Origin: an uncultured Gammaproteobacteria bacterium
GTDB lineage: Bacteria > Pseudomonadota > Gammaproteobacteria > CAYNNN01
Length of the DNA: 64,000 bases
Assembly: GCA_964398665.1 (NCBI GenBank)
Contig: CAYNNN010000005.1
Location: 2,025-66,024, forward strand
Direction of reading: 5' to 3'
Shown here one piece after another: positions 13,480 to 39,842 of the stretch (position 1 is the first letter of the stretch; each line of letters begins with the position of its first letter). Position numbers and translations under genes: made by a program. The notes beneath the pieces were generated by a model, which had not been told where the DNA came from, made no database searches, and was given only the letters and a program-made list of their open reading frames with translations.

Positions 13480-13503
13480 GCTGTAAGTCTTCTTGAGCCT
13501 ATC

Positions 13504-13620: not shown

Positions 13621-13627
13621 GATAGAT

Positions 13628-19565: not shown

Positions 19566-20360
19566 TCAGGGCACTGCGGGGGCGAGTAACTGAATCTCCC
19601 AGCCCTGCTGTTGCAGGCGCAGTTGTAAATCCAGGGCCGTAGCCCGATCCGGCAGCGGGCCAACCCGCAGGCGCCACAGCCCGGCCCCGGCAGTCAGGCG
19701 GGCTTGCCAGGGCGGCGGCAATTGCATCTGGAGTTGCGTCTGCAAGGCCGCAGCCCGACCACGGGCACCGAAGGCCCCGGCCTGCAAATACCAGCCGTCA
19801 TCTGCTGCCAGCATCGTGTCAGCGCGTTCCCCCTGCGGAGAGGCCAGCGGTACCACCCCGCTTTCCGGCACGGTCAGGGCCTGCACCTCGACAGCACCCG
19901 TCCCGGTGATGCCCAGCTTGGCGGCGGCCACATAGGACAGATCAATCAGGCGATCTGCGACAAACGGTCCCCGGTCATTGACCCGCACCACCACCGCCTT
20001 GCCGCTCGCCAGGTTGGTCACACGCACATAGGTCGGCAGGGGCAAGGATTTATGTGCAGCCGTCATGCCCAGCATGTCGTAGGGTTCGCCGCTGGAGGTG
20101 GGCTTGCCATGAAACGCCTTGCCATACCAGGAGGCAGTGCCGCGTTCGACATAACCGACGGCACTGGGCATGACTCGATAGGCTTTGCCCCAGACTACAT
20201 AATCCTTGTTGCCGTAACGGCTCAGGGGTTCTGCCTTGGGGACAGCATCGGGGATTGCGGCCAGGTCTATCGGATCACTGGGCGGGCCATCACGCCCGCC
20301 CGACTGCGGTCCGGCACAACCGGCCAGACACACGGCCAACAGGAGGCTAGTGCCCCGCAT
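19566..20360 (-). CDS. rlpA: Septal ring lytic transglycosylase RlpA (lipoprotein, DPBB plus SPOR)
   Basis: Lipobox LAGC, GTASWYG, TAAHKSLPLP, VRVNDRGPF, RLIDLSY, C-terminal LQAGAF SPOR domain. Confidence 0.93.
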   Translation of the reverse strand: MRGTSLLLAVCLAGCAGPQSGGRDGPPSDPIDLAAIPDAVPKAEPLSRYGNKDYVVWGKAYRVMPSAVGYVERGTASWYGKAFHGKPTSSGEPYDMLGMTAAHKSLPLPTYVRVTNLASGKAVVVRVNDRGPFVADRLIDLSYVAAAKLGITGTGAVEVQALTVPESGVVPLASPQGERADTMLAADDGWYLQAGAFGARGRAAALQTQLQMQLPPPWQARLTAGAGLWRLRVGPLPDRATALDLQLRLQQQGWEIQLLAPAVP

Positions 20361-23300: not shown

Positions 23301-26300
23301 ACAGGGCACGGATCGGCAGTTCCACACCCAACTTGTCGCGCAGCTCGACGATCAGCCGGACCGCCAATTGTGAATACCCCCCGATTTCAAAGAAGTTTTC
23401 ATCAATGCCGATGTGATCGTTTTTCAGGATGTGCTGCCAGATGGCCAGAATGCGCTGCTCCAGGACATTACGCGGTGCGGCCAGGGCCTGAGGCCGGGTG
23501 GTCGTCACCGCAGGCAGGGCACGCCGGTCCACCTTGCCGTTGGAGGACAACGGTAAATTTTCCAGCAGCATGTAGAACTTCGGCACCATGTAGGCGGGCA
23601 GGCGCGCTTCCAGGTAACTACGCAGCTGGGTCAGGGTGAACTGACTGACCTGCGGCCCGCTGGCCCGGCGCAGGTAATGCACCGAATCCTGCAAGGCAGC
23701 AGCATACTGCGGGCTATGGAACTGCACCCCGCTGCGTTTGCCGCTGCGCCACAGCAGCTGGCTTTCCAGGCGGATAATCTCGCTCCCAATGGGCAGACGT
23801 ACACTGAGCGCAAACCGCTGGCCGGGTACCAGGTCGGCGGGTAAATCCAGTAGCTGTGCCCCGGCAGGCGCCAGACTGAGCAGCAAAGCTTCCGCTTCGC
23901 CCCCATCCCAACGCACCCGGCAGGGTTCCTGAGCGGGCAGACTCACGCTGTCCGGGTCAGCCAGCGGTCCACCCATGACCACACCGGCCTCGCTTTCCAT
24001 GACATAGGCCAGACTACGGCGCAGGTCGGTCAGCGCTGCTTCACCCTCCAGCTGCACGCACAACTGTTTTTGGGCCACCCAAAGAATTTCACCGTGATAT
24101 TCCCCCTGGGCCTCCAGCCCCGGCAAGTGCAGGCGCAGGCGCACATATTGGCGCGAATGCCACTCGCACAATTGCGTAGTCAGGGTCAGCGTCTGGGCCG
24201 AGAGCGCAGTCGCCTGCGCGGCAAACCAGGCCCCGGCATGGTCTTCCAGTTCACAGGCCACGGCGATTTCAGCCCGGGCCAGGTCCAGCAGGGAGACCAC
24301 GTAAGCCACCAGCTGTTTTTCGCCTGCCGCTTCGGTAACGGAAACCACGCATTCCTTGACCGCCGGATGCTGGGACAACACCGCCTCGATTTCGCCCAGT
24401 TCAATCCGGTAGCCCTGGATTTTGACCTGAAAATCTTCCCGGCCCAAAAATTCGATATTGCCGTCGGGCCAATAGCGGCCCAAATCTCCGGTGCGATATA
24501 GACGTTCCCCAGTATGGGGATTGCAGATGAAGCGGGCAGCGGTTTTCTCCGGATCGCGCCAGTAGCCCAGCGCCACCCCTACCCCGCCAATGTACAACTC
24601 ACCGGGCACCCAGGTCGGACAGGGCAAATACTGGCTATCCAGCACGTGGAAAGTCTGATTCACCATCGGGCGGCCATAAGGAATGCTGACCCAGTGCGGC
24701 TCCACCCGGGTTACATGATAGGCGATCGACCAGATCGAGGCTTCGGTGGCCCCACCCAAGCTGAAGAATTGCACCTGCGGAGCCAGCGTCCAGAGCGTGT
24801 CAGGCAGCTTCAGCGGAATCCAGTCGCCACTGAGCATCACCAGCCGCAACGAAGGGGGCAGGCTCAGGCGATGACCCTGGACATACTCCAGCAGGATCTT
24901 CATCAGGGCCGGGGCGGTGTTCCAGACGGTCACCTGATGCCGGACGGCCAGTTCCAGCCAATGGGCCGGATCACGCTGCCGCTGCGGGTCGGGCAGTATC
25001 AAGGCCCCGCCTGCGCCCAGGAGTCCGAAAATGTCGTACACCGACAGGTCAAAGGACAGCGAGGACAGGGCCAGCACCCGGTCGCTGTCCTGGACCCGGA
25101 ACCGGGTATTGACATCCACCACCGTGTTGATGGCACCTTGATGGTCGATCATCACGCCTTTGGGCGTGCCGGTCGAACCCGAGGTGAAGATGGTATAGGC
25201 CAGCGCATCCAGCCGCTGAACCGGCTCCAGCTCATCCCCCAGCTCTGCGGCAAACGGGTGAGCGTCCAGGGCAAAGACCTGCACCGTCTCGGGCCAGGTC
25301 AGCCGGGAAACCACCCAGCTCTGGCTCAGGACAAAGCGGGTATCGGTATGGGCCAGCAGATAATCGATCCGGGTCTGAGGCAGGGCCGGATCGATGGGTA
25401 AATAAGCCCCGCCGGCTTGCAGAATGCCCAGGACGGCGACAATCTGCTCCCAACCTTTTTCCGTGACCACGGCCACCAGTTCACCCGGCACCACCCCGCG
25501 CGCCCGCAAGGCCCGCCCAATCCGGTTGGTCTCCTGCCACAACTCCCCGTAACACCAGGTGCGATCGGCGGCAATCACGGCAATCTGGCTCGGGCGCAGT
25601 CTCGCCTGCAAGCCGACGCCTTCCTGCAACCGCAGGCCCGGTAGCGGCGCAGCCGTGGCATTGACCTGCGCCCGCTGCTCCAGTTGAGCAAGCGGTGTCA
25701 GTTGTGGCAGGGACTGCCAGCGGGCTTCATCCTGAGCCAGCCGGTGCAGGTAAGCCTGATAGGCGGCAAACATTTCATCCAGCAAACCCGCCGGGAACAA
25801 GGCTTCCACCGCATCCCAGCTATAAACCAGGTCAGCGCCGTCTTCCAGCACCTGATGATCCAGCCAGACTTGCGGGGTCTGGGACACGCTGTACACCCGC
25901 TGGCCCAGCCAGTCCACCGCTGAATCTGCCCCGGTCTGTAACCCCAGGGCACTGGTGAACACTACCGGCAGACTGACGTTCTGACGGCCCTCCAGGCGCG
26001 CCCATTCTTGCAGGATGCTCAGGCCATTGACCTGGCGATGCGCCAAATCCTGCCACAACTGCCGCTGTACCCGCTCGGCCCGTTCTTCAAAACTGGCCGC
26101 ATGACGCAAATCCACCGCCAGCGGCAGCAGGGCGGTAAAATCACCGACCAGTTGCTCCACTTCGGGATGGGCCGGAATCCGGTTGAATGTGGTCAGATTC
26201 AGGGTAAAGTGCGGGCGTTTGCTCCAGGTCGCCAGCACACAGGCAAACGCCGTGGCCAGCAACACCGAGGGCGTGAGATTGCCCTGCTGCCCACGCTGTT

Positions 26301-29300
26301 TCAGCGCCTGCCACAGCGGCGCGGCCAAGCGGCCCTGGCGTCGGACAAAGTGAGGCTTGCCTACGGTGGCCGGTGGACGCGCCAGCGGCAGTTCCGGCGC
26401 AGGTGGCAATTCTGCCAGCCGGGCGCGCCAGTATGCCAGCGCCGTCTGGTAGTCTGCCCGGCCCTGCCAGCTCCGCTCGGCCAGCACATAGTCACGAAAG
26501 CTCAGGCCCAGCGGCGCCAGCGCCTGGGTCGGGTTGGCATATAGCTCGCCCCACTGGCGAAACAGCAGTAACAAGCTCCAGACATCTGCAATCAGCAGGT
26601 CGATGCTGACATGCACCCGGGTCAAATCCTCGGGCAGGATGCTGGCACGAATTTCAAACAGCGGCCACAAGGCGGTGTCATAAACCTGATGCGACATCCG
26701 CGTCCGCACCGCTTCCAGGGCGGTGCTGCGTACCGCCCGATCGGCGTGGCGCAGATCGGCCACTGCTATCGCGTAAGGCGCAACTTCCGGCAGCATGCGC
26801 TGCTGGCCGTGGGCGTCCACCACCAGGCGCAAGGCCCCGTGGTGTTGAATCAGACGCTGCCAGGCCGCTTCCAGACGTGCGACATCAAGACCGGCGTGCT
26901 CGAATTCCGCATAAAAATGGCAGGCGACTCCACCCAATTCCAGGCTTTCGACCCGCCCCAGCCAGTAAGCGGTCTGGATTTCGTTGAGCGGAAACGGTTG
27001 CGCCTGCTGCGCCCGATCAGGCTGCAAGGTCAGTGCCTGACGCTCGACACCACTGGCCGCCAGGGCCTGCGCGGCCAACTCCCCTATCGTGGCAGCATTG
27101 CCCAGCAAACTCACCGGCAAGGTCCGGCCCAGATGCTGTTCCAAATCGCCCAGCAGCCGCAGGGCCGTCACTGAATCCACCCCCAGCGCCCCCAGCACGC
27201 TGCTGGCCTGCACCGTTGCAACCGGTACGTGCAGGCGCTCTGCGACTCGGCCCACAAGCCAGGCAGTGAGCTGGCCTGCGGCGGTCTCCAGTGCAGCCTG
27301 CACCGGTTCTGCGTCAGGTCCGGCCGACGTGGCCGGGACATCCCAGGCCCAGGCCAGATCCAACTGGCCCTGAAGATAGTCCTGCCTGGCACGTTGCCGT
27401 TGCACCTTGCCACTGGAAGTCTTGGGCAGGCCGCCAAAATTCAGCAGGACCAGTTGCTGGAGCTGCAATTCATGTTGCTCGGCCACTGCCCGGCGTACCG
27501 CCGTCAGGAGTTCTTCCGGATGTGGGGCCAGGGCGCTGCTGCTATCGCCGACCGCACGAAACTGACGCTTTTTCAAATCGCGCTGATAACGCCGATCCAC
27601 CTCGGCGACCATGATCAGTTGCGGTTCTCCGGCCGCACTGTCCACGGCAAAAGCAATGCTGTTGCCCACACCAATGGGCAGATAGCCACTGCTGCCCACC
27701 AATTCGCGCAGGGTCTCGTCCAGCGTCCATTCCAGATCCTGGGGATAATGATTGCGGCCCCGGATGATCAGCACATCTTTCAGGCGCCCGGTGATGAACA
27801 GCTCCCCGTCATGGATGAAACCCAGATCCCCGGTGCGCATGAACGGCCCTTCCCCGGTATCGCTCAAGTGCGCCCGGAACGTGCGTTCGGTCTCATCCTC
27901 ACGGCCCCAGTAGCCCTGAGCGACATGGCGGCCCTGCACCCAGATTTCCCCCACCCGGTTGCGCGGGGTGCGGGTCCGTTCCTCCGGATCGGCCAGGACA
28001 ACCTGCTCAAACCCCAAGGCACAGCCATTGCCCACAAAAGTCTGGCTCCCGCTGCTCAGGGTCGTCAGCATGACCTTGCCGGCCCGCAAGCCATCAGCCA
28101 CCACACCCTGATGCACTGGCCCCGCGCCCGGTTTACCCCCCGTCACCAGCAAGGTCGCTTCGGCCAGCCCATAGCTGGGATAGAACGCTTCCCGGCTAAA
28201 ACCCAAAGGCGCGTAAGTCTTGGCAAAGCGATCCAGACTCTTGGGATTGACCGGCTCGGCACCGGTGAGCAAAAAGCGCCAGGTCGACAAGTCCAGGCCC
28301 GCCTGGGCAGCCGGGTCTATTTCATCCACACACAGATCAAAGGCAAAATTGGGGGCGATAGAGGCCGTGGCCCGAAACCGGCTCATGGCCGTCAGCCAGC
28401 GCAGCGGTTTTTGCAAAAAGGCAGCCGGGGGCATGAAGATACAGCGCATGCCCCGGTACAATGGGAATAGCAACAGGCCAATCAGGCCCATATCGTGAAA
28501 CAGGGGCAGCCAGCCGCACCCGACATCCTGTTCGGTCAGGCCAAAACCGTCCTCCATCATCCGCAGGTTGGTCAGCAGATTGGTATGACTGACCATCACG
28601 CCCTTGGGCGCCCCGGTTGACCCCGAGGTGTATTGCAGCAAGGCTAGGTCATCACCTTGCAGCCTGGGCATGGCCCAGCGCTCGGCATCCGTCAGGACAA
28701 CCTGATCCGTCACCAGCCAGTGCAGGGCCTTGAGCGCCGGCACTTCATCCAGCATCGGCTCCAGGGTTTGTTGAATGCCACGGGTAGTCAACACGGCCGC
28801 CGGCCGGGCATCCTGAATGATGGCACTGAGGCGGCGCAGATTGCGGTTCCGCCGGGGTGGATAGGCCGGAACGGCGATCACGCCGGCATATAGACAGCCA
28901 AAGAACGCACTGATGAACTCCAGTCCGGAGGGGTAAAACAGCAGGGCACGTTCCCCTGCCAGACCCAGACCCTGCAATTGCGCAGCGATGGCGCGGGCCT
29001 GCTTGTCCAGCAATGCATAATCAATCGGCTGGCCATCCCCCTCACCGTCGGGCAGGAACCGGTAGGCTTCCGCTTCGGGACGCAATTTGGCCCGAGTGCG
29101 CAACACATCCACCAGGGTCTCGTAAGCCAGGCCCTTGTTGCCATACTCAAACAGCATCAGACGGACTTTGGGCAGGAAGCGTTCCTGCGGCGGATACACC
29201 GGCTTGTCGATAAAGGCATCCACCCGCGCCTGGGTGATGGCATTCTTGACCAGTTCCACATCCTGGCCATAAGCCGTCACCAACACCCGTTTGGTGCGCG

Positions 29301-29547
29301 GGTAATGCTCATAGACATGGGCCAGCAATTCGATACCCTGAATGCCGGGCATGCGCTGGTCAGATAGCACCAGGGCTATTTCAGCCGTATCCGTACTCAG
29401 GTAGGTGAGCAGCTCCAGGGCCTCTTCCCCGCTGGCGGCGGTGACGATTTGATAATCCTCAGCGAAATGTTCGGTCAGAATGCGGGCCAAGGATTCCCGC
29501 ACCCCCTCTTCATCGTCCACCAGCACGATATAAGGCTGATTGTCCAC
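20347..29547 (-). CDS. 3066-aa hybrid megasynthetase: REC - FAAL - ACP - Cy - A(Cys, with PilZ-like insert) - PCP - class III aminotransferase - acyl-ACP-reductase-like
   Basis: REC (VLVDD, SDQRMP, VTAY, DKP); FAAL (LQYTSGSTG, WLPLFHDMGL, YGLAEATL); ACP (GVDSV); Cy (FPLNEIQTAY, DLLIAD); A (FDLSVYD, LSGDWIP, GGATEASIWS, GKVDR); PCP (IGGYS); PLP enzyme (VDEIQCGMGRTG, FSKSLGGG); Rossmann reductase (GFGGYTS, TSGN, VVGAKGNIG). Confidence 0.9.
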   Translation of the reverse strand: MDNQPYIVLVDDEEGVRESLARILTEHFAEDYQIVTAASGEEALELLTYLSTDTAEIALVLSDQRMPGIQGIELLAHVYEHYPRTKRVLVTAYGQDVELVKNAITQARVDAFIDKPVYPPQERFLPKVRLMLFEYGNKGLAYETLVDVLRTRAKLRPEAEAYRFLPDGEGDGQPIDYALLDKQARAIAAQLQGLGLAGERALLFYPSGLEFISAFFGCLYAGVIAVPAYPPRRNRNLRRLSAIIQDARPAAVLTTRGIQQTLEPMLDEVPALKALHWLVTDQVVLTDAERWAMPRLQGDDLALLQYTSGSTGAPKGVMVSHTNLLTNLRMMEDGFGLTEQDVGCGWLPLFHDMGLIGLLLFPLYRGMRCIFMPPAAFLQKPLRWLTAMSRFRATASIAPNFAFDLCVDEIDPAAQAGLDLSTWRFLLTGAEPVNPKSLDRFAKTYAPLGFSREAFYPSYGLAEATLLVTGGKPGAGPVHQGVVADGLRAGKVMLTTLSSGSQTFVGNGCALGFEQVVLADPEERTRTPRNRVGEIWVQGRHVAQGYWGREDETERTFRAHLSDTGEGPFMRTGDLGFIHDGELFITGRLKDVLIIRGRNHYPQDLEWTLDETLRELVGSSGYLPIGVGNSIAFAVDSAAGEPQLIMVAEVDRRYQRDLKKRQFRAVGDSSSALAPHPEELLTAVRRAVAEQHELQLQQLVLLNFGGLPKTSSGKVQRQRARQDYLQGQLDLAWAWDVPATSAGPDAEPVQAALETAAGQLTAWLVGRVAERLHVPVATVQASSVLGALGVDSVTALRLLGDLEQHLGRTLPVSLLGNAATIGELAAQALAASGVERQALTLQPDRAQQAQPFPLNEIQTAYWLGRVESLELGGVACHFYAEFEHAGLDVARLEAAWQRLIQHHGALRLVVDAHGQQRMLPEVAPYAIAVADLRHADRAVRSTALEAVRTRMSHQVYDTALWPLFEIRASILPEDLTRVHVSIDLLIADVWSLLLLFRQWGELYANPTQALAPLGLSFRDYVLAERSWQGRADYQTALAYWRARLAELPPAPELPLARPPATVGKPHFVRRQGRLAAPLWQALKQRGQQGNLTPSVLLATAFACVLATWSKRPHFTLNLTTFNRIPAHPEVEQLVGDFTALLPLAVDLRHAASFEERAERVQRQLWQDLAHRQVNGLSILQEWARLEGRQNVSLPVVFTSALGLQTGADSAVDWLGQRVYSVSQTPQVWLDHQVLEDGADLVYSWDAVEALFPAGLLDEMFAAYQAYLHRLAQDEARWQSLPQLTPLAQLEQRAQVNATAAPLPGLRLQEGVGLQARLRPSQIAVIAADRTWCYGELWQETNRIGRALRARGVVPGELVAVVTEKGWEQIVAVLGILQAGGAYLPIDPALPQTRIDYLLAHTDTRFVLSQSWVVSRLTWPETVQVFALDAHPFAAELGDELEPVQRLDALAYTIFTSGSTGTPKGVMIDHQGAINTVVDVNTRFRVQDSDRVLALSSLSFDLSVYDIFGLLGAGGALILPDPQRQRDPAHWLELAVRHQVTVWNTAPALMKILLEYVQGHRLSLPPSLRLVMLSGDWIPLKLPDTLWTLAPQVQFFSLGGATEASIWSIAYHVTRVEPHWVSIPYGRPMVNQTFHVLDSQYLPCPTWVPGELYIGGVGVALGYWRDPEKTAARFICNPHTGERLYRTGDLGRYWPDGNIEFLGREDFQVKIQGYRIELGEIEAVLSQHPAVKECVVSVTEAAGEKQLVAYVVSLLDLARAEIAVACELEDHAGAWFAAQATALSAQTLTLTTQLCEWHSRQYVRLRLHLPGLEAQGEYHGEILWVAQKQLCVQLEGEAALTDLRRSLAYVMESEAGVVMGGPLADPDSVSLPAQEPCRVRWDGGEAEALLLSLAPAGAQLLDLPADLVPGQRFALSVRLPIGSEIIRLESQLLWRSGKRSGVQFHSPQYAAALQDSVHYLRRASGPQVSQFTLTQLRSYLEARLPAYMVPKFYMLLENLPLSSNGKVDRRALPAVTTTRPQALAAPRNVLEQRILAIWQHILKNDHIGIDENFFEIGGYSQLAVRLIVELRDKLGVELPIRALFETPTIAQLAERIGQLLGTVTLPTADAAALLPDTALYGHYARRGIAGRIAVIGADKHYTRAQGNYLYYEIQGQEVEILDMVGGYGSTILGHNHPELVQHMQMLLAEGVPINAQHSNNIAAGKLGRALSERLHQATGQHFVATLASTGTEAVEAAVKHAKLELRNKGLQQEKYLDNLAALMLDQYHKGQVAVQPTLYTEAAALLGVVCADLAAVYQAVVAHNGQVLAQEPLFLALTHAFHGMTTGALSMTASPDFRHPFHWMGLRTRWIRHEPGALQAAIEAERQTIYLFALDAAGAVTLTAKPWYPVAALFLEPIQGEGGMHPVKPEFLQAARQLADEYGFPIVVDEIQCGMGRTGTFTAAELSGLRGDYYTFSKSLGGGLTKVSAMMVSERRYQDDFGYMHGSTFAEDRLGCLMALRTLELLQEEDILATCARSGQLFLGKLRQLAVDYPDVIREVRGAGLMLGVELAPQQHSPSFMLRLIAQHGMEMVNMLIAGYLLNVKQIRIAPTKTRNTIRFLPSALITEAEMERVIAAFADVCQIFRHANAGRLLRYVVGAETDPGEPVQDWRDRQPPNTDTTPGDEPRVAHIGHLEDLDALLQLEPSFAEVPEALREPLLRQLFPYSKIAIAQQMRITTATGAQVHLSIIGLPLTGALFEAMMRTEERELLLYKIDEAVQLAHKHGCKVVGFGGYTSIVTLNCTAVAETGLALTSGNAYTAALGIEGALSAAQAQGLILAETPIAVVGAKGNIGSICARVLAEYSPLIRLFGRNAQDEGLREVADTLYADAWVALQRGGPVSGLAAALATTQTYARLMQQATPPEAIGAFLRAQVESELGGARWVQLSDQLTDLADCPVIVSCTNSARPVIYPQHLSRRVVVICDIATPKDVANSVFDAYPHIQILSGGLARLPGAQGLKLQGTRLPVDHVYGCVAETTLLGVSGYAQHFSFGEMTKQQVDFIRNLAQQQGYQIGTVALQALEYAGH

Positions 29548-29578
29548 GTAAGCACTCCCCCTAATACTAATAATGAAT

Positions 29579-31081
29579 TCAACGCCCGCCGTGCGCTATC
29601 AGCGGCAAGGTCAGAACAAACCGGGTTTCACCAGGACGAGAACGCACCTGCAGACTGCCCTGATGACCCTCCTCGATGATGCGCTTGGCATCGAACAATC
29701 CCAGCCCCGTGCCCTTCTTGCCGCTTTTGGTCGTGACAAACGGCTTGAAAATTTCCGCCTGCAAGGCGGCCGGAATGCCTTCCTTGCCGTTGTCCAGAAT
29801 TTCTGCGCTGATCTGCCCGGAACCCGCCTGGGTCGTCAGGGTGATTTCCCCCCCTTCCCCAACGGCATCAATGGCATTTTCGATCAAGTAGACAAAGCAG
29901 TACATCAGGTCCACCGGGAACCCCGACAGCGGCGGCAATTCGGCAAATTGCGAGTTGATCTTGATCCCCTTGAGCCGAAAGGACAGCATGTCCAGGGCAC
30001 TGCCAATCACCTGATTCAGGTTGATATGATCGGAGGGTTTGGCACGCTCCGGCTGGGCGGCATTCAGCACCATGAAGATTTCCTTGGAAAGCTGGGTCGC
30101 ATTGCTGCCCGTGTTACGCAACTGCGCCCCCACCTGCACCACCACGCGCACCAGCTCCAGCCAGCGGTCCAGCGGCCCCAGCAATTCCGCCAGCATCTGC
30201 AACTGGGGGGCCGTGAGCAAATGTCTGGCCGCCAGACTGTAATGCTCCCGCTTCAACCCCAGGCCCGCGCCCTGCGCAGCCGCCTGCAACCTGGCAGCCG
30301 CCTGCAGGATTTCCAGCGAAGTCGGCAGACGCTGAACCAGGGCTTGTTCAAATACCGCCTGCAATACTGCCAATCCCGCCTGCAACTCGGTCTCAGTCTG
30401 CGTGCCCAGCCACGGGATACCCGTCGTGAGCAGCCAACGCACATCCTGGGTCAGATTGGGCTGGGCGCTTTCTATCGCCACTGCCGGATTCTTCAACCGG
30501 TGGGACAGGCTGGACAGCAGGCGGCTGGTGATGGTGGCACGTTCACTCTGAATCAGCTTGACCTGCGTTTCCCGCAGGCTGGCCAAGGCCTGGGAAAGTT
30601 CGCTGGTGCGTTTTTCCAGATCACGTTTGTATTGCTGTTCCTTGCGCTGATAGAAATATTTCTCGCAGGCATGTTTGACCTTGAGGCGCATCTCCATTTC
30701 TGGCGCCCCCTTGACGATATAAGACTCAAACCCGTAACTGACGATCTCGGAAATGTTGTGTTCATCATCATGGCCGGTGTGCATGATGATGGGCACGTGC
30801 GGGAATTTGCGCCAGATGCGTCGGGAAGCCTCAAAGCCTGACATGGTGGGCATTTTGGCATCCATCACCACGCAGGCAATGTCGTCAGTCATGCTGTCTA
30901 GGGCTTCCTCGCCGCTGGAGGCCAGGGAGACCTCGTAATCCTGGAAGACCTTGCGCAAAATGGCCAGGGCTGCATCCGAATCATCCACCAGCAGCAACCC
31001 GACCCGTGTTTCACCCTCGGGCAAAAACGCCGCCGCCGCAGGGGCCGGATGTCCTGCTGCGCAAGGCGCTTCAGTTACCAT
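29579..31081 (-). CDS. Hybrid REC-histidine kinase (cytoplasmic)
   Basis: REC LLVDD, VMDAKMP, HTG, VKG; H-box SHRLKNP; N-box LIENAIDA; DNG; FKPFVTTK; GTGLGL. No hydrophobic segment. Confidence 0.88.
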   Translation of the reverse strand: MVTEAPCAAGHPAPAAAAFLPEGETRVGLLLVDDSDAALAILRKVFQDYEVSLASSGEEALDSMTDDIACVVMDAKMPTMSGFEASRRIWRKFPHVPIIMHTGHDDEHNISEIVSYGFESYIVKGAPEMEMRLKVKHACEKYFYQRKEQQYKRDLEKRTSELSQALASLRETQVKLIQSERATITSRLLSSLSHRLKNPAVAIESAQPNLTQDVRWLLTTGIPWLGTQTETELQAGLAVLQAVFEQALVQRLPTSLEILQAAARLQAAAQGAGLGLKREHYSLAARHLLTAPQLQMLAELLGPLDRWLELVRVVVQVGAQLRNTGSNATQLSKEIFMVLNAAQPERAKPSDHINLNQVIGSALDMLSFRLKGIKINSQFAELPPLSGFPVDLMYCFVYLIENAIDAVGEGGEITLTTQAGSGQISAEILDNGKEGIPAALQAEIFKPFVTTKSGKKGTGLGLFDAKRIIEEGHQGSLQVRSRPGETRFVLTLPLIAHGGR

Positions 31082-31093
31082 CGCAACCCCCGC

Positions 31094-32365
31094 CTAGAAG
31101 TGATAATTCAGACGGAGCTGAACCAGACTGTCATCGCGGGAGCTATAGAGGTAATCAATCTCGTCCTGGTTAAAAAACAGCAGGGCATCCAGATTCAGTT
31201 TCCAGGCTTCGCCCAGGCGCCGGCTACCTTCCAGCTTGATCAGATCCCCATGCCCGTCGAGGTCATGCCCCCAGGCCAGCAATGCGGAAGTATCGGCCGC
31301 ATCATTCAGACCCAGACGCAGGCCGACAAACAGATCGTTGGCAAAAGCCGAATTGGCCAGTTCATCGCGGTCATCGTACAAATATTCCACCAGCAGGTTC
31401 AGTTCGGCCCCGGCGATCCCGGCATCGCTGAAGGCATATTCAAAGCCCCCGGTGAAGGCGAAATAATCATTTTCCAACCCCAACAAATCTTCCTGACCAC
31501 TCCGGTGGATGGCTTCCAGCTTCCACAGCCAGCTCTCGTTGGCCCAGAGTACCTCCAGCCCGGTCTGGTCAATCTGCTCGTAATAAGGCGCCAGCACAAA
31601 GCGTGCATCGGGGGTGACGGCAATACGGAAACTGGGGTCGCGGCTGGTGCCGCTAAAATGCGACAACGCCAGTTCCAGATCGCCCAGCAGCAGGTGATAG
31701 CGAGCAGCAAAATCCACATGCTGTTGTTTGTCAGGATCTTCATACTGGGTCAGGTCGGTGTCCACGTACGGCTCAAACCGTAGCCGACCCTCGGCGCCCG
31801 GAAAGGTGCGTTCCCGGAAATAAGGCAGGACAAACAGGCTCAAGGTACCCGACCCCTGCGCCCAGTCCAGGCGCACCATCGGCTGGCCCAGCTTGTCCTC
31901 GCCTTCCGGAAATTCAACCAGATCAGTCTGGTTGACGATATCCACCAGATGCTGAAACTCCGTGACGCCCCAGAAAACCTTCCCGACCCCAAGCTGAAGA
32001 TTCAGATCACTACCCAGCGCCCGACTCCAGCTCAGTTCCCGGATATCGGCATGACTACGTTCGGAATCAGCGCTATCCAGACGCACAAACGGTCTGAAGA
32101 CCCAGCGACCCGAGGCAGCCGTATATTGATATTCCGGCTCGGCCTGAAATCCCAGGCTGTGCTCTTCTTGATCCGGGTACAGCGGGTCTTCAAAGAACAG
32201 CCGACCTTCCAGCCCTACATAACCCGACCAGCCCGACTTGGATGCCGCATCATCGGCAACCCGCTTGTCCTTGTGCGCGACCTCAAGCGCATCAGCCCAA
32301 ACGGACCCGGCCCCCACCAGTAACCCAAGCGCCAGCGCCAGCCAGCCCCCCTGTCGTTGCAACAT
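31094..32365 (-). CDS. Outer-membrane beta-barrel of the MMPL/LolA-like-associated type
   Basis: Signal peptide, DIREL, GVGKVFWGVTE...LVDIVNQTD, alternating beta-strands, terminal LNYHF. Confidence 0.75.
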   Translation of the reverse strand: MLQRQGGWLALALGLLVGAGSVWADALEVAHKDKRVADDAASKSGWSGYVGLEGRLFFEDPLYPDQEEHSLGFQAEPEYQYTAASGRWVFRPFVRLDSADSERSHADIRELSWSRALGSDLNLQLGVGKVFWGVTEFQHLVDIVNQTDLVEFPEGEDKLGQPMVRLDWAQGSGTLSLFVLPYFRERTFPGAEGRLRFEPYVDTDLTQYEDPDKQQHVDFAARYHLLLGDLELALSHFSGTSRDPSFRIAVTPDARFVLAPYYEQIDQTGLEVLWANESWLWKLEAIHRSGQEDLLGLENDYFAFTGGFEYAFSDAGIAGAELNLLVEYLYDDRDELANSAFANDLFVGLRLGLNDAADTSALLAWGHDLDGHGDLIKLEGSRRLGEAWKLNLDALLFFNQDEIDYLYSSRDDSLVQLRLNYHF

Positions 32366-32418
32366 GACACACTCCCCCAAGCATTTTAATTATCATTGCA
32401 AATTGGCATGCAGACCGA

Positions 32419-33825: not shown

Positions 33826-33864
33826 AATTCACCTGCTCCCCGCTGTTCTACAGTCTAATCAAAA

Positions 33865-36800
33865 TCAGCCCACCTGGGGTCTGGACAGCCATTTGGCCTG
33901 GGTCGCTTCCAGCCACAGCACCAGAGGTGCCAGCATCAGCATATCCAGGGCCAGTGCCAGAACGAACGTCATGGCCGTCAACATGCCCATATCAGAGTTC
34001 ACGGCGAAACCGGAACTGGCGAGAATCAGGAAGCCCCCGGCCAGAATGATGGAGGTAAATAACATGGATGGCCCGACATGCAGGAAAGTCTCGCGGATGG
34101 CCTGATGAGCGGCCAGACGGCGGCGCCGGGCGGCAGCATAATGGGCCATGAAATGTACGGAGTCATCCACCACGATACCCTGCGTCATGGAAAACACCAC
34201 GGCACTGGCCAAACCGACCTGCCCGACCAGATAACCCCAGATGCCAAAGGCCAGCAAGGCCGGGAAAATATTCGGCACCAGGCTGACCAGCCCCAGGGAA
34301 ATGCTGCGCAAGGCAATCAGCATGATCCCGGATACCAGGAACAGGGCCAGAACGTTGCCGTTGAGCATGCTGTTGATGTTGCGTTCGGATATCTTGGCAA
34401 ACATCAGGGACGGGCTGGCACCTCGGGCGTGCATGATCGGCGGGACATTCTCCTGGAGCCATTCATAAGCGCGCTGCTCCAGGGCAATGAGCTGGGCATT
34501 GCTGACATTGCGCAAGGTGACGGTAAAACGGGTGGCGGACTCATCCAGATTGATCTGGTTATTTAAATCCAGTCCACGGGGCAATGACAGCTTGTACAGC
34601 AGCAGATACTGCGCGGCGGTATTGCGATCTTCGGGAATCCGGGCATAAAACGGGTCGTTATTGTGCATGTTGGCGTTGAGACGCTTCACGATATCCGTGA
34701 TGGCGCTGACGTGCATGACGCCTTCCTGCTTGCGATACCAGGTAGCAAACTGCTCAATCCGGTTGAGATACAAGGGGTCGTTGATTCCACCCGGTTCACC
34801 GGTTTTCAGCGAATACTCAATACTGTCCATGCCGGTGAGATTATCGCGGATGAAATCCGTCTCGACCCGAAACCGGTAGCTGTGGTCAAAGTATTCGACA
34901 AAATTGTCATCCAGGACGATCAGCATGACGCCGGCCGCCACCAGCGGCATCAGGGTCAGGGAACCTACCAGGATGGGCCGCTGACGCCGGATGGTAAAAT
35001 CGGCCCAACGGTTCAATTGCCTGTCCAGCCAGGGCTGCTTGCGCGGATTCCTCGGGGGCCGAAATGGCAGCAACATCATCAGAGCCGGCAGGAACAGCAT
35101 GGAATAAATCAGGGCGTACGCCACGCCGACGGCAACGATGTTGCCCAAATCCCGCAGCGGTGGGGCATCGCTGTAGTTCATGCTGAGAAAACCGATGGCA
35201 TTGGTCAGGGTGGTCAGAAATACCGGCATCAGATTCAGACGCATCGCGGTGATCAGGGCTTCGCGCTTGCTGTCCCCCTGACGCAATTGATGGAAGAATG
35301 CGGTCAGAAAGTGCAGGCTGTCACCCACCGCCACGGTCAGGATGATCGTGGGGGCCGCCGCAGAAGGGGTGGACAAGGCCGCGCCAAACCAGCCAAAAAT
35401 CCCCATCGCACTGAGCGAGGCCGCTGCGATAATCACGCAGATCGCAAGCACACCGGTCACCGAACGCAGCAGCACCCCGGCCAGCAGGACCACAAACAGC
35501 AGCATGACCGGATACAGATGCTCCATATCCCGCAAGGTGGCCTCCAGAAAGGCCGCATCCTGCATCACCATGCCACTCAGATAGATCGGGATGTTAGGAT
35601 ATTTAGCCTGAAACTGACGCACCAGTTGCTGGGAGTATTCGACGATCTGGCGGTTCTCGTCTGTGGATTTGCCCGGCAGTTGCAGGCTGACATTAATCCC
35701 GGTGACATGCCCAGACGGTGAAACCAGCCGATTCAGCAGCAGCGGTTCGGCCAGGGCAATTTTCCGCGCTGTATCAAGTTGCTCCGGGGTGAATTGAGCA
35801 GCACCCGAGGCCAGATCCCGGACGATCAGCTCATCTTCACGGGCCTGGGTATGCTGGAAGTTGGTCACGGAGTCCACCCGACTGGAATAGGGTATCTTCC
35901 AGGCCGCCTCCGTCAGCCACTCTACGGCGGTCAGCGTTTCCTGAGTAAATACATCGCCCTGAGGCGCCTTGACCACAAACAGGGCGTTGTAGTTTTTTGC
36001 ATAGGTATGTTCCAGGGCATCAAAAGCCCGCAATTCGGGGTTGGCGTCGCTGAAATAGACCCGATAATCATCCGTGAAGCCGATGTAATGCAAGCCGGCA
36101 ATGCTGCCCGCACCCAGGGCCAGGGTCAGCAACAAAAATAGCCAGGGATACGCTGTCACCCAGCGGCCCAGCCACTCACCCCAACTGACGCCGGGTATTT
36201 CGGGCACGGGCGTAGTACCGTGCGTGGCCGTGGTCGAACTGCGTTCTGACGCAAGTTCCGATGTTGTCGCAGGTGACGTGGACACAACCGGCGCAGTGTC
36301 GGTTCTGGAGGCTTCGCGTGGCTTGACGGTGGGCAGTACCTGCGGGGTGGCCTCGTTGACCGCCTTTTGCAGCGAAGCTTCAAACTCGCGTTTGACCTGG
36401 ATGAGATTGCGCAGGCGGGCCACCAGTTCCAGCGGACGCACCGGCTTGATCAGATAATCGTTGGCCCCGGCTTCAAAGACGCGCAACAGGGTCTGTTCGT
36501 CCTGGTCGGAAGTGATGACCACGATGGGCAGACGCTGACGTGCCGGGTCAGGCAACTGACGCACGGTCGCAGTCAGCACATCGCCATCCATGTTCCCCTC
36601 CAGTCGCAAATCCGTCAGGATCAGGTCATAGGGTCGCGCCTTGATCGCAGCCAGCGCGCTGAGGGCATCGGTGAAATGCTCCACCGTATAATGCTGTTCC
36701 TTCAGGGCCTTCTGAATGGCATACGCATAAGTGCGGCTGTCTTCCACCAGACAGATCAGACCCTGACTTTCTTGTGCCGCCCGCGTTTGAGACAGGCTGT

Positions 36801-37230
36801 CATAAGTGCGCTTGATCCGCAGCAGATTATTGACACGGGCAATTAATTCCTGGGTATTGGCCGATTTGGCCAGATGGTCGTTGGCACCAGCTTCAAAGAC
36901 CCGCACCAGGGTTTCCCCTTCACGGTCTCCCGTCAGCACCAGAATCGGCAGGCGACGTACCGCATCATCACGGGCCGCGCGTACCATCTTGATCAGGTCA
37001 TCACCCTGCTCGACGCCGGGGGCCAGCCCCAGGTCCGTCACCAGCAGGTCAAAGCGGCTCAGACACAAGGCCGCATAGGCTTCACGGGCATCGGTAAAAT
37101 GTTCAACCGTCAGCCCGAGCATACGCAATGTCTGCGTGATGGCGTAAGCGGCCGTCTTGCTGTCTTCGACCAGGCAAACCCGTCCGCCGGTCTGGGAAGG
37201 TTGCGCAGTCGCATTCCGGGAAGTATTCAT
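33865..37230 (-). CDS. MMPL/RND-family transporter with two N-terminal receiver domains
   Basis: REC1 (LVEDS, VTDL, LTG, LAK) and REC2 (LVEDS, LTDL, ITS, IKP), then a 12-TM MMPL pattern with two periplasmic loops and TM4/TM10 motifs VAVGDSLH and GIVVDDSVH; one open frame. Confidence 0.88.
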   Translation of the reverse strand: MNTSRNATAQPSQTGGRVCLVEDSKTAAYAITQTLRMLGLTVEHFTDAREAYAALCLSRFDLLVTDLGLAPGVEQGDDLIKMVRAARDDAVRRLPILVLTGDREGETLVRVFEAGANDHLAKSANTQELIARVNNLLRIKRTYDSLSQTRAAQESQGLICLVEDSRTYAYAIQKALKEQHYTVEHFTDALSALAAIKARPYDLILTDLRLEGNMDGDVLTATVRQLPDPARQRLPIVVITSDQDEQTLLRVFEAGANDYLIKPVRPLELVARLRNLIQVKREFEASLQKAVNEATPQVLPTVKPREASRTDTAPVVSTSPATTSELASERSSTTATHGTTPVPEIPGVSWGEWLGRWVTAYPWLFLLLTLALGAGSIAGLHYIGFTDDYRVYFSDANPELRAFDALEHTYAKNYNALFVVKAPQGDVFTQETLTAVEWLTEAAWKIPYSSRVDSVTNFQHTQAREDELIVRDLASGAAQFTPEQLDTARKIALAEPLLLNRLVSPSGHVTGINVSLQLPGKSTDENRQIVEYSQQLVRQFQAKYPNIPIYLSGMVMQDAAFLEATLRDMEHLYPVMLLFVVLLAGVLLRSVTGVLAICVIIAAASLSAMGIFGWFGAALSTPSAAAPTIILTVAVGDSLHFLTAFFHQLRQGDSKREALITAMRLNLMPVFLTTLTNAIGFLSMNYSDAPPLRDLGNIVAVGVAYALIYSMLFLPALMMLLPFRPPRNPRKQPWLDRQLNRWADFTIRRQRPILVGSLTLMPLVAAGVMLIVLDDNFVEYFDHSYRFRVETDFIRDNLTGMDSIEYSLKTGEPGGINDPLYLNRIEQFATWYRKQEGVMHVSAITDIVKRLNANMHNNDPFYARIPEDRNTAAQYLLLYKLSLPRGLDLNNQINLDESATRFTVTLRNVSNAQLIALEQRAYEWLQENVPPIMHARGASPSLMFAKISERNINSMLNGNVLALFLVSGIMLIALRSISLGLVSLVPNIFPALLAFGIWGYLVGQVGLASAVVFSMTQGIVVDDSVHFMAHYAAARRRRLAAHQAIRETFLHVGPSMLFTSIILAGGFLILASSGFAVNSDMGMLTAMTFVLALALDMLMLAPLVLWLEATQAKWLSRPQVG

Positions 37231-37323
37231 GAGTTGGACGCCAGACTCGCAGCGGTGATGGGCGAATATACCCGGAAGCCACGTCTTGTTGCTAGTATGC
37301 CCCGAGATTTCAGGTTCAATTGC

Positions 37324-38016: not shown

Positions 38017-38753
38017 AGGGTGGCCAGTTCGGCACGCAGGGCGGCCAGCACCGCCGCCTCTGAATCATGGAGGAAAAAATGCCCTCCGGCAAATCGACGC
38101 ATTTGCAACGGCATCTGGGTTTGTACCTGCCAGGCCGCCAATTCTGCCCCGGTCACCTTGGGGTCAGTTTCCCCGCCCCAGGCGGTGATGGGTATTGCCA
38201 GCGGGGGTTCGGCACGATAGCCGTAGGTCTCACATAGGGCAAAATCGGCCCGCAGCATGGGCAACAGCAACTGCATCAGTTCGGCGTTGGCCAGCACGGC
38301 CTCCGGTGTCCCGGCCTGGGCGCGCAAATCGGCGATGAACTCTGCATCCGGCCAGGCGTGAACCATCGGGGTACGTTGGGGCAGTTGCGGGGCACGCTGG
38401 CCCGAGACGATCAGCTTGAGCATCTGGGTGTGGCGCAGACGACGCAGGTAACGGGCCACCTCGAAGGCAACAAAAGCCCCCAGGCTATGACCATAAAATA
38501 CCAACGGTCCCAAAGGCAGTAGTGCCGTTGCCAACGGGGCCACCACCCGCTCCAGCTGCCGCACGGGCAATTCCGTCAGGCGTCCCCCCCGGCCCGGCAA
38601 TTGCACCACCCGCATTTCCACATCGGCAGGCAACTGCGCTTGCCAGGTGACAAAGGCACTCGGCCCACCGCCGGCATAGGGAAACACGATCAGGCGCAGG
38701 CGCGGTCTGGGCAAGGCCTGACCCACCAGCCAGCGGGACTGGGTCGTGCTCAT
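38013..38753 (-). CDS. Type II thioesterase
   Basis: FPYAGG, QLPGRG, GHSLG nucleophile, LRADF, GGHFF. Confidence 0.92.
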   Translation of the reverse strand: MSTTQSRWLVGQALPRPRLRLIVFPYAGGGPSAFVTWQAQLPADVEMRVVQLPGRGGRLTELPVRQLERVVAPLATALLPLGPLVFYGHSLGAFVAFEVARYLRRLRHTQMLKLIVSGQRAPQLPQRTPMVHAWPDAEFIADLRAQAGTPEAVLANAELMQLLLPMLRADFALCETYGYRAEPPLAIPITAWGGETDPKVTGAELAAWQVQTQMPLQMRRFAGGHFFLHDSEAAVLAALRAELATL

Positions 38754-39373
38754 CGCTCTGACCGCGTTTCAGCAAACAAACCCAGCAGCATGGCCTGCTG
38801 CACCAGCTCGGCAACGGAACTGGCCTGCATTTTGTGCATCACCCGTCCCCGATGCACTTCCACCGTCTTGGCACTGACGTTGATGCGCTCGGCCATCTCC
38901 CGATTGCTCAAACCCTGACAAACCAGCTGCATGATCGTCACTTCACGTTCCGTCAGCTCCGCATGGCGTTCTGCCAGCACCTGCCGTTGTACTACCGACT
39001 CCCGCAGGCTGGCATCCCGATGCAGGGCTGCTGCCACGCGCGCCAGCAATTGTGCGGAATTGGCCGGCTTTTGCAAAAAATCGAAGGCACCTTGTTTCAT
39101 CAACTCGACTGCCACCGGCACATCGCCATGCCCGGTCAGAAAAATGACTGGTAACGTATAACCGGCAGCCTGCAAACGTTGTTGCACCTGCTGGCCATCG
39201 AATTCCGGCATCCGCAAATCCAGAACCAGGCAACCGGCGGCTGTGGGGGGCACAGCCGCCAGAAAGGCGACTCCACCCGGAAAGGCCAGGGCCGTGAAGC
39301 CGGAGGATTCCAGCAAGAAACACAGCGAGCTTCTTACTTCAGGCTCATCATCAATAACATATACTGTAGCCAC
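38750..39373 (-). CDS. FixJ/TtrR-type REC-LuxR response regulator
   Basis: YVIDDE, LDLRMP, LTGHG, LQKP, LTERE, KTVEVHR. Start taken at GTG 39373. Confidence 0.9.
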   Translation of the reverse strand: MATVYVIDDEPEVRSSLCFLLESSGFTALAFPGGVAFLAAVPPTAAGCLVLDLRMPEFDGQQVQQRLQAAGYTLPVIFLTGHGDVPVAVELMKQGAFDFLQKPANSAQLLARVAAALHRDASLRESVVQRQVLAERHAELTEREVTIMQLVCQGLSNREMAERINVSAKTVEVHRGRVMHKMQASSVAELVQQAMLLGLFAETRSER

Positions 39374-39386
39374 GGTCGGATTAGCC

Positions 39387-39824
39387 CTATTGCCAGCGTG
39401 CCATCGCCGCGCCATCACCTGACCGGGGTTCCAGCCAGGTCCGGCCCTCGGCCGTGATGGCCTGTTTCCAGAAGGGCGCCTCGGTTTTCAACGCATCCAC
39501 AAGGAACTCGCAGGCCGCAAAGGCTTCCGCCCGATGCACCGCACTCACCCCCACCCAGACGATCGGCGCTCCCACGGCCAGGGTCCCCACCCGATGAATC
39601 AGCCGAACGGCCAGTAATGGCCAACGCTGCCGGGCCGCAGCAACCAATTGTTCCAAAGCTTGTTCGGTCATGGGTGAGTAATGCGCCAGATGCAGCGCCT
39701 GCACGGGCGGGTGGCCATCCGCCCGCACCACGCCGACAAAGCTGGCCACTGCACCCCCGCCGGTTTGCAGCAGGGCCTGCCATTCTGCATTCAGATCAAA
39801 CGGCTCTGTCTGAACACGCACCAT
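39387..39824 (-). CDS. moaE: Molybdopterin synthase catalytic subunit
   Basis: SFVGVVR, IHRVGTL, HRAEAFAACEFLVDALKTEAPFWK. Confidence 0.92.
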   Translation of the reverse strand: MVRVQTEPFDLNAEWQALLQTGGGAVASFVGVVRADGHPPVQALHLAHYSPMTEQALEQLVAAARQRWPLLAVRLIHRVGTLAVGAPIVWVGVSAVHRAEAFAACEFLVDALKTEAPFWKQAITAEGRTWLEPRSGDGAAMARWQ

Positions 39825-39842
39825 CACAACCTCCCGCAAGGC

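Follow-up and report, generated by a model that had tools for sequence, protein, structure and literature searches.

Tandem receiver domains leashed to an MMPL/HAE3-type RND pump suggest phospho-control of export in an uncultured gammaproteobacterium

RND/MmpL pumps are important in drug efflux, in the export of envelope lipids, and in the secretion of natural products. To our knowledge, transcription accounts for nearly all that is understood of their control, a few small-protein modulators aside. Can such a pump also be controlled directly by phosphorylation? The question is raised by a gene in the window, the whole 64,000-nucleotide stretch of DNA analyzed here, whose predicted product (P0001) carries two receiver (REC) domains ahead of a transporter. 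An earlier note had read it as an exporter gated directly by phosphorylation, possibly by two inputs. The gene originates from an uncultured gammaproteobacterium of activated sludge, whose ArgH shares no more than 63% identity with that of any species representative, the top matches being Gammaproteobacteria. The parts of the gene are as follows.

33865..37230, minus strand: whole gene, REC-REC-leash-MMPL/HAE3 RND predicted exporter (P0001), 1121 aa (ORF list, Pfam, NCBIfam, AlphaFold2)
36787..37182, minus strand: REC1, residues 17-148 (Pfam Response_reg; (beta-alpha)5 fold in the AlphaFold2 model)
36349..36759, minus strand: REC2, residues 158-294 (Pfam, best stretch 159-273; AlphaFold2 model)
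36184..36348, minus strand: leash, Thr/Ser/Pro/Ala-rich and disordered, residues 295-349, about 55 residues (pLDDT, composition)
33868..36183, minus strand: RND body, residues 350-1121 (MMPL Pfam, HAE3 alignment, AlphaFold2 helices, Foldseek, column counts)

From N to C terminus, P0001 thus consists of REC1, REC2, the leash, and an MMPL/HAE3-type RND body with 12 transmembrane (TM) helices. In the AlphaFold2 model, which has a mean pLDDT of 85.5 and is confident outside residues 297-346, the body is made of an amphipathic helix before TM1, the 12 TM helices (TM1, 362-382; TM2-6, 554-720; TM7, 750-770; TM8-12, 940-1116), and two large periplasmic domains (383-553 and 771-939), placed between TM1 and TM2 and between TM7 and TM8 as in RND transporters. 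We used this model in place of a hydropathy scan, which picked up 9 of the 12 helices, and the N terminus was assigned to the cytoplasm from established RND topology. The Pfam MMPL family (PF03176) matched P0001 in two stretches (E value of 5e-29; 101.7 bits versus a cutoff of 20.5), and Patched/sterol-sensing matches were also present. The NCBIfam HAE3 model (TIGR00921) spanned residues 366-1103 from end to end (model positions 8-730 of 733) at 140.6 bits, below its curated cutoff of 351.9, so we describe P0001 as HAE3-like, not as a curated HAE3 member. By Foldseek, the RND body resembled MmpL4/5/3 at TM-scores of 0.76-0.81 (target normalized) and also HpnN, the solved HAE3 structure, which was the only transporter matched by sequence in the PDB.

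Proton-coupled transport in this family calls for charged residues in TM4 and TM10, and the aspartates reported there by the earlier note are indeed present. In the model, D637 (35320-35322) lies within TM4 (helix 626-650) and D1022-D1023 (34162-34167) within TM10 (helix 1007-1036). Across the family members compared, both TM10 aspartates and the histidines H640 and H1026 never varied (56/56). One refinement concerns the TM4 relay position, which is not always Asp: 42 of the 56 members have Asp there, 13 have Asn, and 1 has His.

The fusion itself withstood our checks. Run X3, a sludge metagenome from a different study, contained a single 27.6-kb contig that covers 33600-37500 with 0 differences, one contig of run X1 crossed the REC-TM junction, and five more REC-MMPL proteins (45-76% identity) were found in independent samples. 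The independent single contig and the five independent homologs rule out an assembly artifact or chimera. Chance domain matches were likewise ruled out for P0001, by E values of 1e-29 to 1e-41. In a tree of the transporter domain only, the six REC-fused proteins formed one side of a branch (support, 100/98), with 50 REC-less homologs on the other, a grouping that fits a single old fusion that was retained. Because the internal branches of the fused group are long, the fusion appears to have been kept over deep divergence. The REC-MMPL architecture is real, rare, and conserved.

We then considered the receivers. Pfam Response_reg (PF00072) matched P0001 in two stretches (combined E value of 2.8e-41; 140.6 bits versus a cutoff of 30.2), and both modeled domains show the strand/helix alternation of the receiver fold at a pLDDT of about 90. 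Each has a full catalytic quintet, composed of E22, D23, acceptor D66 (37033-37035), T100, and K122 in REC1 and of E163, D164, acceptor D207 (36610-36612), T240, and K262 (followed by P263) in REC2. In REC1 of P0001 and P0002, the usual Pro after the conserved Lys is replaced by Ser. The description of two similar receivers with an acidic pocket, acceptor Asp, Thr, and Lys is thereby confirmed, the two being 52% identical, and both look competent for phosphorylation.

The two receivers differ in conservation. The five catalytic residues of REC1 are invariant in 4 aligned fusions, and the set is complete in every fusion possessing REC1. REC2 is canonical in P0001 and P0002 but degenerate in P0003 and P0004, where the acidic pair, Thr, and Lys are lost, and it is missing from P0124. 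Between P0001 and P0002, identity is 87% for REC1 and 75% for REC2; between P0003 and P0004, the values are 81% and 38%, so that REC2 is evolving faster than REC1. A tree of REC domains, drawn to tell an ancient duplication followed by decay of REC2 in P0003/P0004 from a recent copying of REC1, favored neither origin: most of its forks had less than 80% support, and there were long branches. The top PDB and NCBIfam matches of the tandem receivers (residues 17-293) were PleD. REC1 is the conserved putative acceptor and REC2 possibly an accessory domain, as in PleD.

The pump receivers form a distinct REC subfamily: RECs fused to export proteins share 37-56% identity, versus 20-30% with the other four RECs of the window. 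In an exhaustive profile search with the receivers, covering 1.84 billion representatives, every one of the top per-domain matches stood at the N terminus of an MMPL pump, a TM-anchored LolA-like protein, or the HlyD adaptor of a MacB-type pump. In the LolA-like and adaptor fusions, 90-355 residues and one TM helix lie between the REC and a periplasmic protein, and the subfamily fusions carry from 1 to 6 REC copies.

How could such receivers act on a pump? The Thr/Ser/Pro-rich linker noted earlier ahead of TM1 was borne out by composition (T12, S9, P8, and A7 among the 73 residues from REC2 to TM1). AlphaFold2 predicted residues 297-346 to be disordered (pLDDT of <50), and the leash is 61-98 residues long across the MMPL fusions, with a sequence unconserved among them. 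The sequence reveals no physical coupling path through a leash so disordered and variable, and the same REC subfamily is also leashed to periplasmic adaptors and carriers; rigid cis-allosteric gating is therefore unlikely. The variable leash argues instead for a tethered switch on the pump complex, and a tethered switch at the cytoplasmic face of that complex fits all the fusions.

The genes around the pump point to what may be exported and what may control it. The features of the neighborhood are listed below.

38750..39418, minus strand: FixJ/LuxR-type response regulator (Pfam Response_reg and GerE), with a 4-nt overlap with the thioesterase start
38013-38753, minus strand: type II thioesterase (Pfam), upstream of the PPTase; same order in L001
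37324-38016, minus strand: PPTase (Pfam), directly upstream of the pump; same order in L001
32419..33825, minus strand: LolA-like (PF17131) lipoprotein, 468 aa (Pfam E value of 2e-63), 39 nt downstream of the pump
31094..32380, minus strand: 428-aa signal-peptide protein with C terminus ...NYHF, no Pfam match
29579..31081, minus strand: soluble REC-histidine kinase, 500 aa (Pfam Response_reg and HATPase_c; H-box-like SHRLKNP)
20347..29547, minus strand: 3066-aa megasynthase (Pfam, REC-FAAL-ACP-C-A(PilZ-like insert)-PCP-class III aminotransferase-C-terminal domain)
49926..53282, minus strand: MMPL with C-terminal histidine kinase, 1118 aa (Pfam MMPL, 1.7e-39; HATPase_c, 3e-21)

The row thioesterase, PPTase, pump, LolA-like lipoprotein, outer-membrane barrel, REC-kinase, and REC-NRPS has an operon-like spacing of -4 to 93 nt, and much of it is seen again in two other genomes. 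The gene order is repeated in L001, L009 groups NRPS, thioesterase, REC-MMPL, LolA-like, barrel, and hybrid HK-REC-Hpt kinase genes, and in L002 the pump adjoins a PKS. A promoter/terminator scan of positions 20100-40000 gave counts no higher than chance, and no RNA run containing the P0001 gene was found. The lipoprotein, whose N-terminal hydrophobic stretch ends in Cys (LVAC), is the probable periplasmic carrier; its orthologs (41-63% identity) come after the REC-MMPL gene in L001, L004, and L009. The 428-aa protein, conserved behind the LolA-like gene in the same three loci (46-68% identity) and weakly similar to the DUF1302 protein of the window, is probably an outer-membrane barrel, weakly DUF1302-like. 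The megasynthase has an ortholog beside REC-MMPL in L009 (49-53% identity) and one in L001 (74-78% over the part present there), and it probably makes the exported product, a lipid-tailed compound that would be the substrate of the pump.

Several kinases are encoded nearby. The REC-histidine kinase, of which a 75% identical ortholog occupies the same position in L001, is a candidate phosphodonor named solely for the proximity of its gene. A possible alternative donor is the MMPL-histidine kinase, which is only 21% identical to P0001 and is accompanied by its own DUF1302 barrel, LolA-like protein, and REC-PAS-GGDEF-EAL gene; a further histidine kinase is encoded at 42095-42997. No kinase was found within 10 kb of P0003 or P0004. 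The FixJ/LuxR-type regulator is possibly the transcriptional arm of the same control. Ordinary members of the family do appear to be transcriptionally controlled, as the earlier note had stated: the nearest two REC-less homologs sit in a cassette TetR-MMPL-LolA-like-barrel, with MMPL directly behind TetR, an arrangement indicative of transcriptional control. The neighbors of the fused pumps are kinases and megasynthases, not TetR.

Architecture, gene context, and the attachment of all the closest subfamily members to export parts together make direct phospho-control of export likely. We hold with moderate confidence that P0001 is a phospho-controlled, proton-driven exporter whose leashed receivers serve as a tethered switch, its substrate, kinase, phosphorylation, and the effect on transport all being predictions. 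The claim of direct gating by phosphorylation is in this way partly upheld, by the architecture, the competent-looking receivers, and the relay residues; its rigid form is unlikely. In the mechanism that we propose, the HAE3/MMPL-type pump would use protons to move what the neighboring FAAL-NRPS megasynthase makes, probably a lipid-tailed compound, and would pass it to the LolA-like lipoprotein and the outer-membrane barrel. The tandem receivers would be held at the cytoplasmic N terminus by the leash, and a kinase of the cluster, the best candidate being the REC-kinase three genes downstream of the pump, would transfer phosphate to D66 of REC1 and perhaps also to D207 of REC2. The phosphorylated module would alter REC-REC packing or oligomeric state, in a PleD-like manner, and would bind to the pump complex at its cytoplasmic face or come away from it, switching export on or off. 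Export would thus be coordinated post-translationally with synthesis by the REC-bearing megasynthase. Such coordinated phospho-control of synthesis and export would not be general, as the L009 megasynthase is without REC and without the PilZ-like insert.

Alternatively, the pump could merely be an anchor, the leashed receivers being a membrane docking module that recruits the megasynthase or a kinase, or a phosphate sink or relay, with the transport rate unchanged. The long, disordered, variable leash agrees with this, as do the attachment of the same subfamily to proteins of periplasmic function (LolA-like, HlyD), for which direct allostery is implausible, the variable REC copy number, expected of a sink or multivalent scaffold, and the three other REC-bearing proteins that the cluster holds besides the pump. 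Cytoplasmic partners are also known to bind MmpL pumps, as seen in MmpL5-AcpM structures and in the reported MmpL7-PpsE interaction (PMC6463170). However, a sink or scaffold needs no attachment to export parts, yet every top member of the subfamily has it, and we judge this alternative unlikely, though worth serious consideration. Recruitment of the megasynthase through REC-REC contacts with its own REC is unlikely to be general, because that REC belongs to a different group (identity of ≤25% along its length) and the L009 enzyme lacks it.

A less probable alternative is that different kinases act on REC1 and REC2, so that the pump integrates two signals, as the earlier note had suggested. The intact quintets of both receivers in P0001 and P0002 and the several kinases nearby are compatible with two inputs, but the degeneracy of REC2 in P0003/P0004, its absence from P0124, and its faster divergence speak against them. 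Moreover, two receivers that are so similar and of one subfamily favor one kinase or a PleD-like acceptor-plus-adaptor pair, and the idea of two inputs is left weak. Very improbable is reverse signaling, in which the pump is a sensor whose loaded or idle conformation sets REC (de)phosphorylation and reports export flux to kinase and synthase: the MMPL-kinase fusion of the window, where the MMPL body is evidently the input domain, and the sterol-sensing-type segment of the RND body would suit it, but the disordered leash offers no route for conformational transmission, the proton-relay residues, together with dedicated partners in the periplasm and outer membrane, point to a working transporter, and we are aware of no other receiver that is read out in this reverse sense.

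The preferred reading, a tethered phospho-switch on an exporter, has partial parallels in known systems. We know of no described HAE3 cassette member with a signaling domain. AmeABCD of Castellaniella defragrans combines an HAE3-type RND protein with LolA-like periplasmic and outer-membrane proteins (PMC6394551). Such cassettes share with the P0001 locus the order of an HAE3/COG1033-type RND body, a LolA-like protein, and an outer-membrane protein, and REC-less homologs at about 50% identity have this three-gene cassette too. Of the four Ame components (RND protein, DUF1302 outer-membrane protein, DUF1329/LolA-like protein, and COG4447 protein), the P0001 locus has the RND protein, the LolA-like protein, and a barrel that lacks a Pfam match and is weakly DUF1302-like, but not the fourth, COG4447 protein, for which the cassette and its flanks contain no candidate gene. 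An NRPS cluster surrounds the P0001 cassette, in place of a catabolic island or a preceding TetR gene.

The mycobacterial exporters MmpL3, MmpL4/5, and MmpL7 secrete lipid-tailed products of megasynthases whose genes neighbor their own. MmpL4/5/3 are the best structural matches of P0001 (TM-scores of 0.76-0.81), yet their sequence identity to it is only 12-16%. For MmpL3, MmpL7, and MmpL11, phosphorylation has been put forward as a means of control after translation; in mycobacteria it is carried out by Ser/Thr kinases on cytoplasmic tails or loops, with no demonstrated effect (PMC6463170). P0001, in contrast, has a complete His-Asp receiver module built into the pump. PleD likewise has two N-terminal tandem receivers ahead of its output domain, the second being a degenerate adaptor, as in P0003 and P0004 only; that of P0001 is fully canonical. 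The PleD output is a soluble GGDEF enzyme behind a short linker, whereas that of P0001 is a 12-TM transporter behind a disordered leash. LacS offers a case of secondary transport modulated after translation, through a fused IIA-like domain phosphorylated by HPr (PMC10710835). It shares with the proposed control of P0001 a phosphorylatable cytoplasmic domain fused to a transporter but belongs to a different superfamily and is phosphorylated on His by the PTS. The same 2023 review names the small proteins AcrZ, YajC, and WatS1 as the RND modulators known so far and is silent on receiver domains (PMC10710835). Our literature search, of incomplete coverage, returned no description of a REC-MMPL, REC-RND, or REC-adaptor fusion; architecture databases probably list such fusions uncommented.

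A receiver built into the pump would, if the preferred reading is true, be the first two-component signaling to act directly on an RND transporter. The occurrence of one REC subfamily on three parts of export machines also supplies natural constructs for testing how a cytoplasmic phospho-signal is transferred to a trans-envelope pump. Some biosynthetic gene clusters may carry their own fast post-translational circuit coupling synthesis to export, which would be relevant to the heterologous expression of silent clusters. More tentatively, and as a possibility short of probable, the subfamily may serve trans-envelope export machines in general as a plug-on phospho-switch, placed on pump, carrier, or adaptor and often in natural-product clusters; in this organism, a cluster phosphorelay of REC-kinase, REC-megasynthase, and REC-REC-pump would then switch synthesis and export of the lipid metabolite jointly, in a matter of seconds and with no need for new transcripts. 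Among the adaptor fusions, one REC-adaptor gene comes directly after genes for an OmpR regulator and a PhoQ-like kinase, and another, on the contig that carries P0004, lies within an NRPS-type cluster.

The window derives from activated-sludge metagenomes, and the earlier note had named an assembly artefact as one thing that would refute its REC-REC-MMPL ORF (P0001; 33865..37230, minus strand, 1121 aa). A single 27.6-kb contig from a run of another study covered positions 33600-37500 with 0 differences, and one contig from a second metagenome run crossed the junction between the receiver domains (REC) and the first transmembrane helix (TM1). Furthermore, word-indexed searches among 5.8 billion proteins returned five more REC-MMPL proteins, which stem from independent samples:

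P0002, REC-MMPL, 76% identity to P0001
P0003, REC-MMPL, 47% identity to P0001
P0004, REC-MMPL, 45% identity to P0001
P0121, REC-REC-MMPL
P0124, single REC-MMPL

The independent contigs and homologs rule out an artefact and establish that the fusion is genuine. The same searches yielded hundreds of receiver-less homologs of ~770 aa with ~50% identity.

Pfam recognized two Response_reg domains (2.8e-41) in P0001 and, after them, the two halves of MMPL (5e-29); Patched/sterol-sensing profiles matched over TM2-6. In NCBIfam, residues 366-1103 aligned with nearly the whole HAE3 model, at a score below the curated cutoff, and PleD-type tandem receivers were the best match of the N-terminal 290 residues, in agreement with a PDB sequence search. 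The AlphaFold2 model, which rests on 56 homologs, was confident (mean pLDDT, 85.5) and delimited the following parts:

residues 17-148, REC1, followed by a short hinge
residues 158-294, REC2
residues 297-346, disordered stretch (leash), pLDDT <50
residues 350-360, pre-TM1 helix
RND body, 12 TM helices and two periplasmic domains

REC1 and REC2 share 52% identity, and the catalytic residues described in the earlier note are present as complete quintets in both (E22, D23, D66, T100, and K122; E163, D164, D207, T240, and K262). Its Thr/Ser/Pro-rich linker is the leash, which is also rich in Ala, and its TM4 and TM10 aspartates correspond to D637 and D1022/D1023. In an alignment of 56 family members, the TM10 Asp-Asp pair, H640, and H1026 were invariant (56/56). 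The TM4 Asp, usually counted in the RND proton relay, was replaced by Asn in 13/56 members, among them the fused P0003 and P0004, and by His in 1/56. By homology, P0001 is predicted to have a working RND core with relay residues. The nearest folds to its body are those of mycobacterial MmpL4/5/3 (TM-score, 0.76 to 0.81), which export megasynthase-made lipids, and also HpnN.

The pump gene lies in a minus-strand row with intergenic spacings of -4 to 93 nt, in this order:

FixJ-type regulator
type II thioesterase
PPTase
33865..37230, REC-REC-MMPL
32419-33825, LolA-like lipoprotein
428-aa protein with a signal peptide and the end NYHF (called barrel)
REC-histidine kinase, soluble
20347-29547, megasynthase (3066 aa), REC-FAAL-ACP-C-A-PCP-aminotransferase

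The entire gene order is preserved around P0002. The P0124 locus contains a thioesterase, the REC-MMPL pump, a LolA-like protein, a barrel, a hybrid HK-REC-Hpt kinase, and a megasynthase ortholog (49-53% identity); the P0004 locus keeps the LolA-like and barrel genes, and the P0003 locus borders a trans-AT-type PKS. The barrel shows weak similarity to the DUF1302 protein encoded in the window; the module therefore resembles AmeABCD, an HAE3 cassette in which an RND pump likewise occurs with a DUF1302 protein and a LolA-like protein (PMC6394551). Homology assigns P0001 putative dedicated periplasmic and outer-membrane partners. The conserved context suggests that its substrate is the lipid-tailed product of the neighboring megasynthase and that a cluster kinase phosphorylates its receivers. 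In the two nearest REC-less homologs, the cassette is TetR - MMPL - LolA-like - barrel, which is classic transcriptional control.

The megasynthase has an N-terminal receiver of its own (Pfam, 1.7e-16) and, within its adenylation domain, an insert of ~220 residues that weakly matches PilZ (E, 6e-4). The synthase of the P0124 locus lacks both, which are therefore lineage-specific regulatory add-ons. The LolA-like lipoproteins measure 468-539 aa beside REC-fused pumps versus ~260 aa beside REC-less pumps, the extra N-terminal part including an InlB B-repeat-like domain as well as a linker rich in Ala, Pro, and Lys.

Receivers from the fused proteins share 37-56% identity among themselves, versus 20-30% with the window's four other receivers. 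We built a profile from twelve of them, searched 1.84 billion cluster representatives exhaustively, and scanned the best per-domain matches with Pfam. In all of them, the receivers were fused N-terminally to a component of envelope export: an MMPL pump, a LolA-like protein with a single TM anchor (P0122 and P0240), or an HlyD-type adaptor, with one to six receivers per adaptor (P0125, P0147, P0237-P0239, P0241, P0306-P0309, P0362, and P0373). Generic multi-receiver hybrid kinases ranked lower and were listed only through summed domain scores. In every case, 61-355 residues of disorder-promoting composition separated the last receiver from the first TM helix. Genes for MacB-type ABC pumps come after the adaptor fusions. 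One of these fusions belongs to an NRPS-type cluster (MbtH, FAAL, thioesterase, PPTase) located on the 357-kb contig that also carries P0004, and a second comes immediately after genes for an OmpR regulator and a PhoQ-like kinase.

P0122 (locus L007, 10001-12973) and P0240 consist of two receivers, a disordered stretch of ~270-350 residues, one TM helix, and a periplasmic LolA-like domain; the P0122 gene adjoins genes for a TolC-like OEP and an AcrB-type RND pump. P0237 (1572 aa), P0238, P0239, and P0241 carry three to six tandem receivers. The 357-kb contig (ERZ25043462 NODE_5; L096 8001-9935 and L004 10001-13384) represents one organism with a REC-adaptor/MacB/OEP pump in the NRPS-type cluster and a REC-REC'-MMPL pump ~100 kb off, so the REC subfamily can be used more than once per genome.

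In an unrooted maximum likelihood tree of the transporter domain alone, with a limited REC-less sample, a branch supported at 100/98 separated the six fused proteins from 50 REC-less homologs. Branch lengths were 0.5-1.1 changes per site, and this topology is compatible with one fusion event kept over deep divergence. A REC-domain tree gave no resolution of receiver history. REC1 catalytic residues did not vary across four aligned fusions. REC2, which changes faster than REC1 in both lineages, keeps the canonical residues in P0001 and P0002; in P0003 and P0004 it retains the Asp but no longer has the acidic pair, Thr, or Lys, and it is missing from P0124. Two independent inputs, a possibility in line with the two inputs raised in the earlier note and one that could coexist with direct phospho-control, appear improbable.

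Disorder and variability mark the leash, and these receivers also occur on proteins with periplasmic working domains; therefore, judging from anatomy, the receivers most likely act on the cytoplasmic side of the pump complex as a tethered switch. Such a switch could operate by docking and undocking of the receivers, or phosphorylation might drive a REC-REC rearrangement and dimerization, as in PleD; either is favored over rigid transmission through the linker. We lean toward direct phospho-control of export of the tethered-switch kind. That the receivers serve as a scaffold or sink, leaving transport unaffected, seems unlikely to us, and reverse, flux-reporting signaling is very improbable.

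A review from 2023 on how bacterial transporters are controlled post-translationally gives small proteins as the known RND modulators and nowhere mentions receiver domains or two-component systems (PMC10710835). An MmpL review considers phosphorylation only as a proposed Ser/Thr type, its effect not demonstrated (PMC6463170). Full-text searches of the literature turned up no account of REC-MMPL or REC-adaptor fusions. Receiver domains, RND pumps, and plug-on regulatory domains are each of a known kind; their combination in a REC-bearing RND pump and the export-dedicated REC subfamily appear undescribed.

Another operon-like row in the window contains a second MMPL fusion:

47765-49936, REC-PAS-GGDEF-EAL protein
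49926-53282, minus strand, full MMPL body with a C-terminal histidine kinase
53272-55197, DUF1302 barrel
55207-56241, LolA-like protein

This fusion is a transporter-like sensor kinase, and its body shares only 21% identity with that of P0001. It could conceivably be a phosphodonor or a sensor for the exported lipid, its link to P0001 being proximity only. After a RAMP-superfamily protein (56487-57671, minus strand; Pfam, 2.8e-14) come several large ORFs, likewise on the minus strand, as far as 64 kb; this may be a type III CRISPR-Cas locus or a related one. The G+C content is 0.51 at 12001-14000 versus ~0.60 elsewhere in the window.
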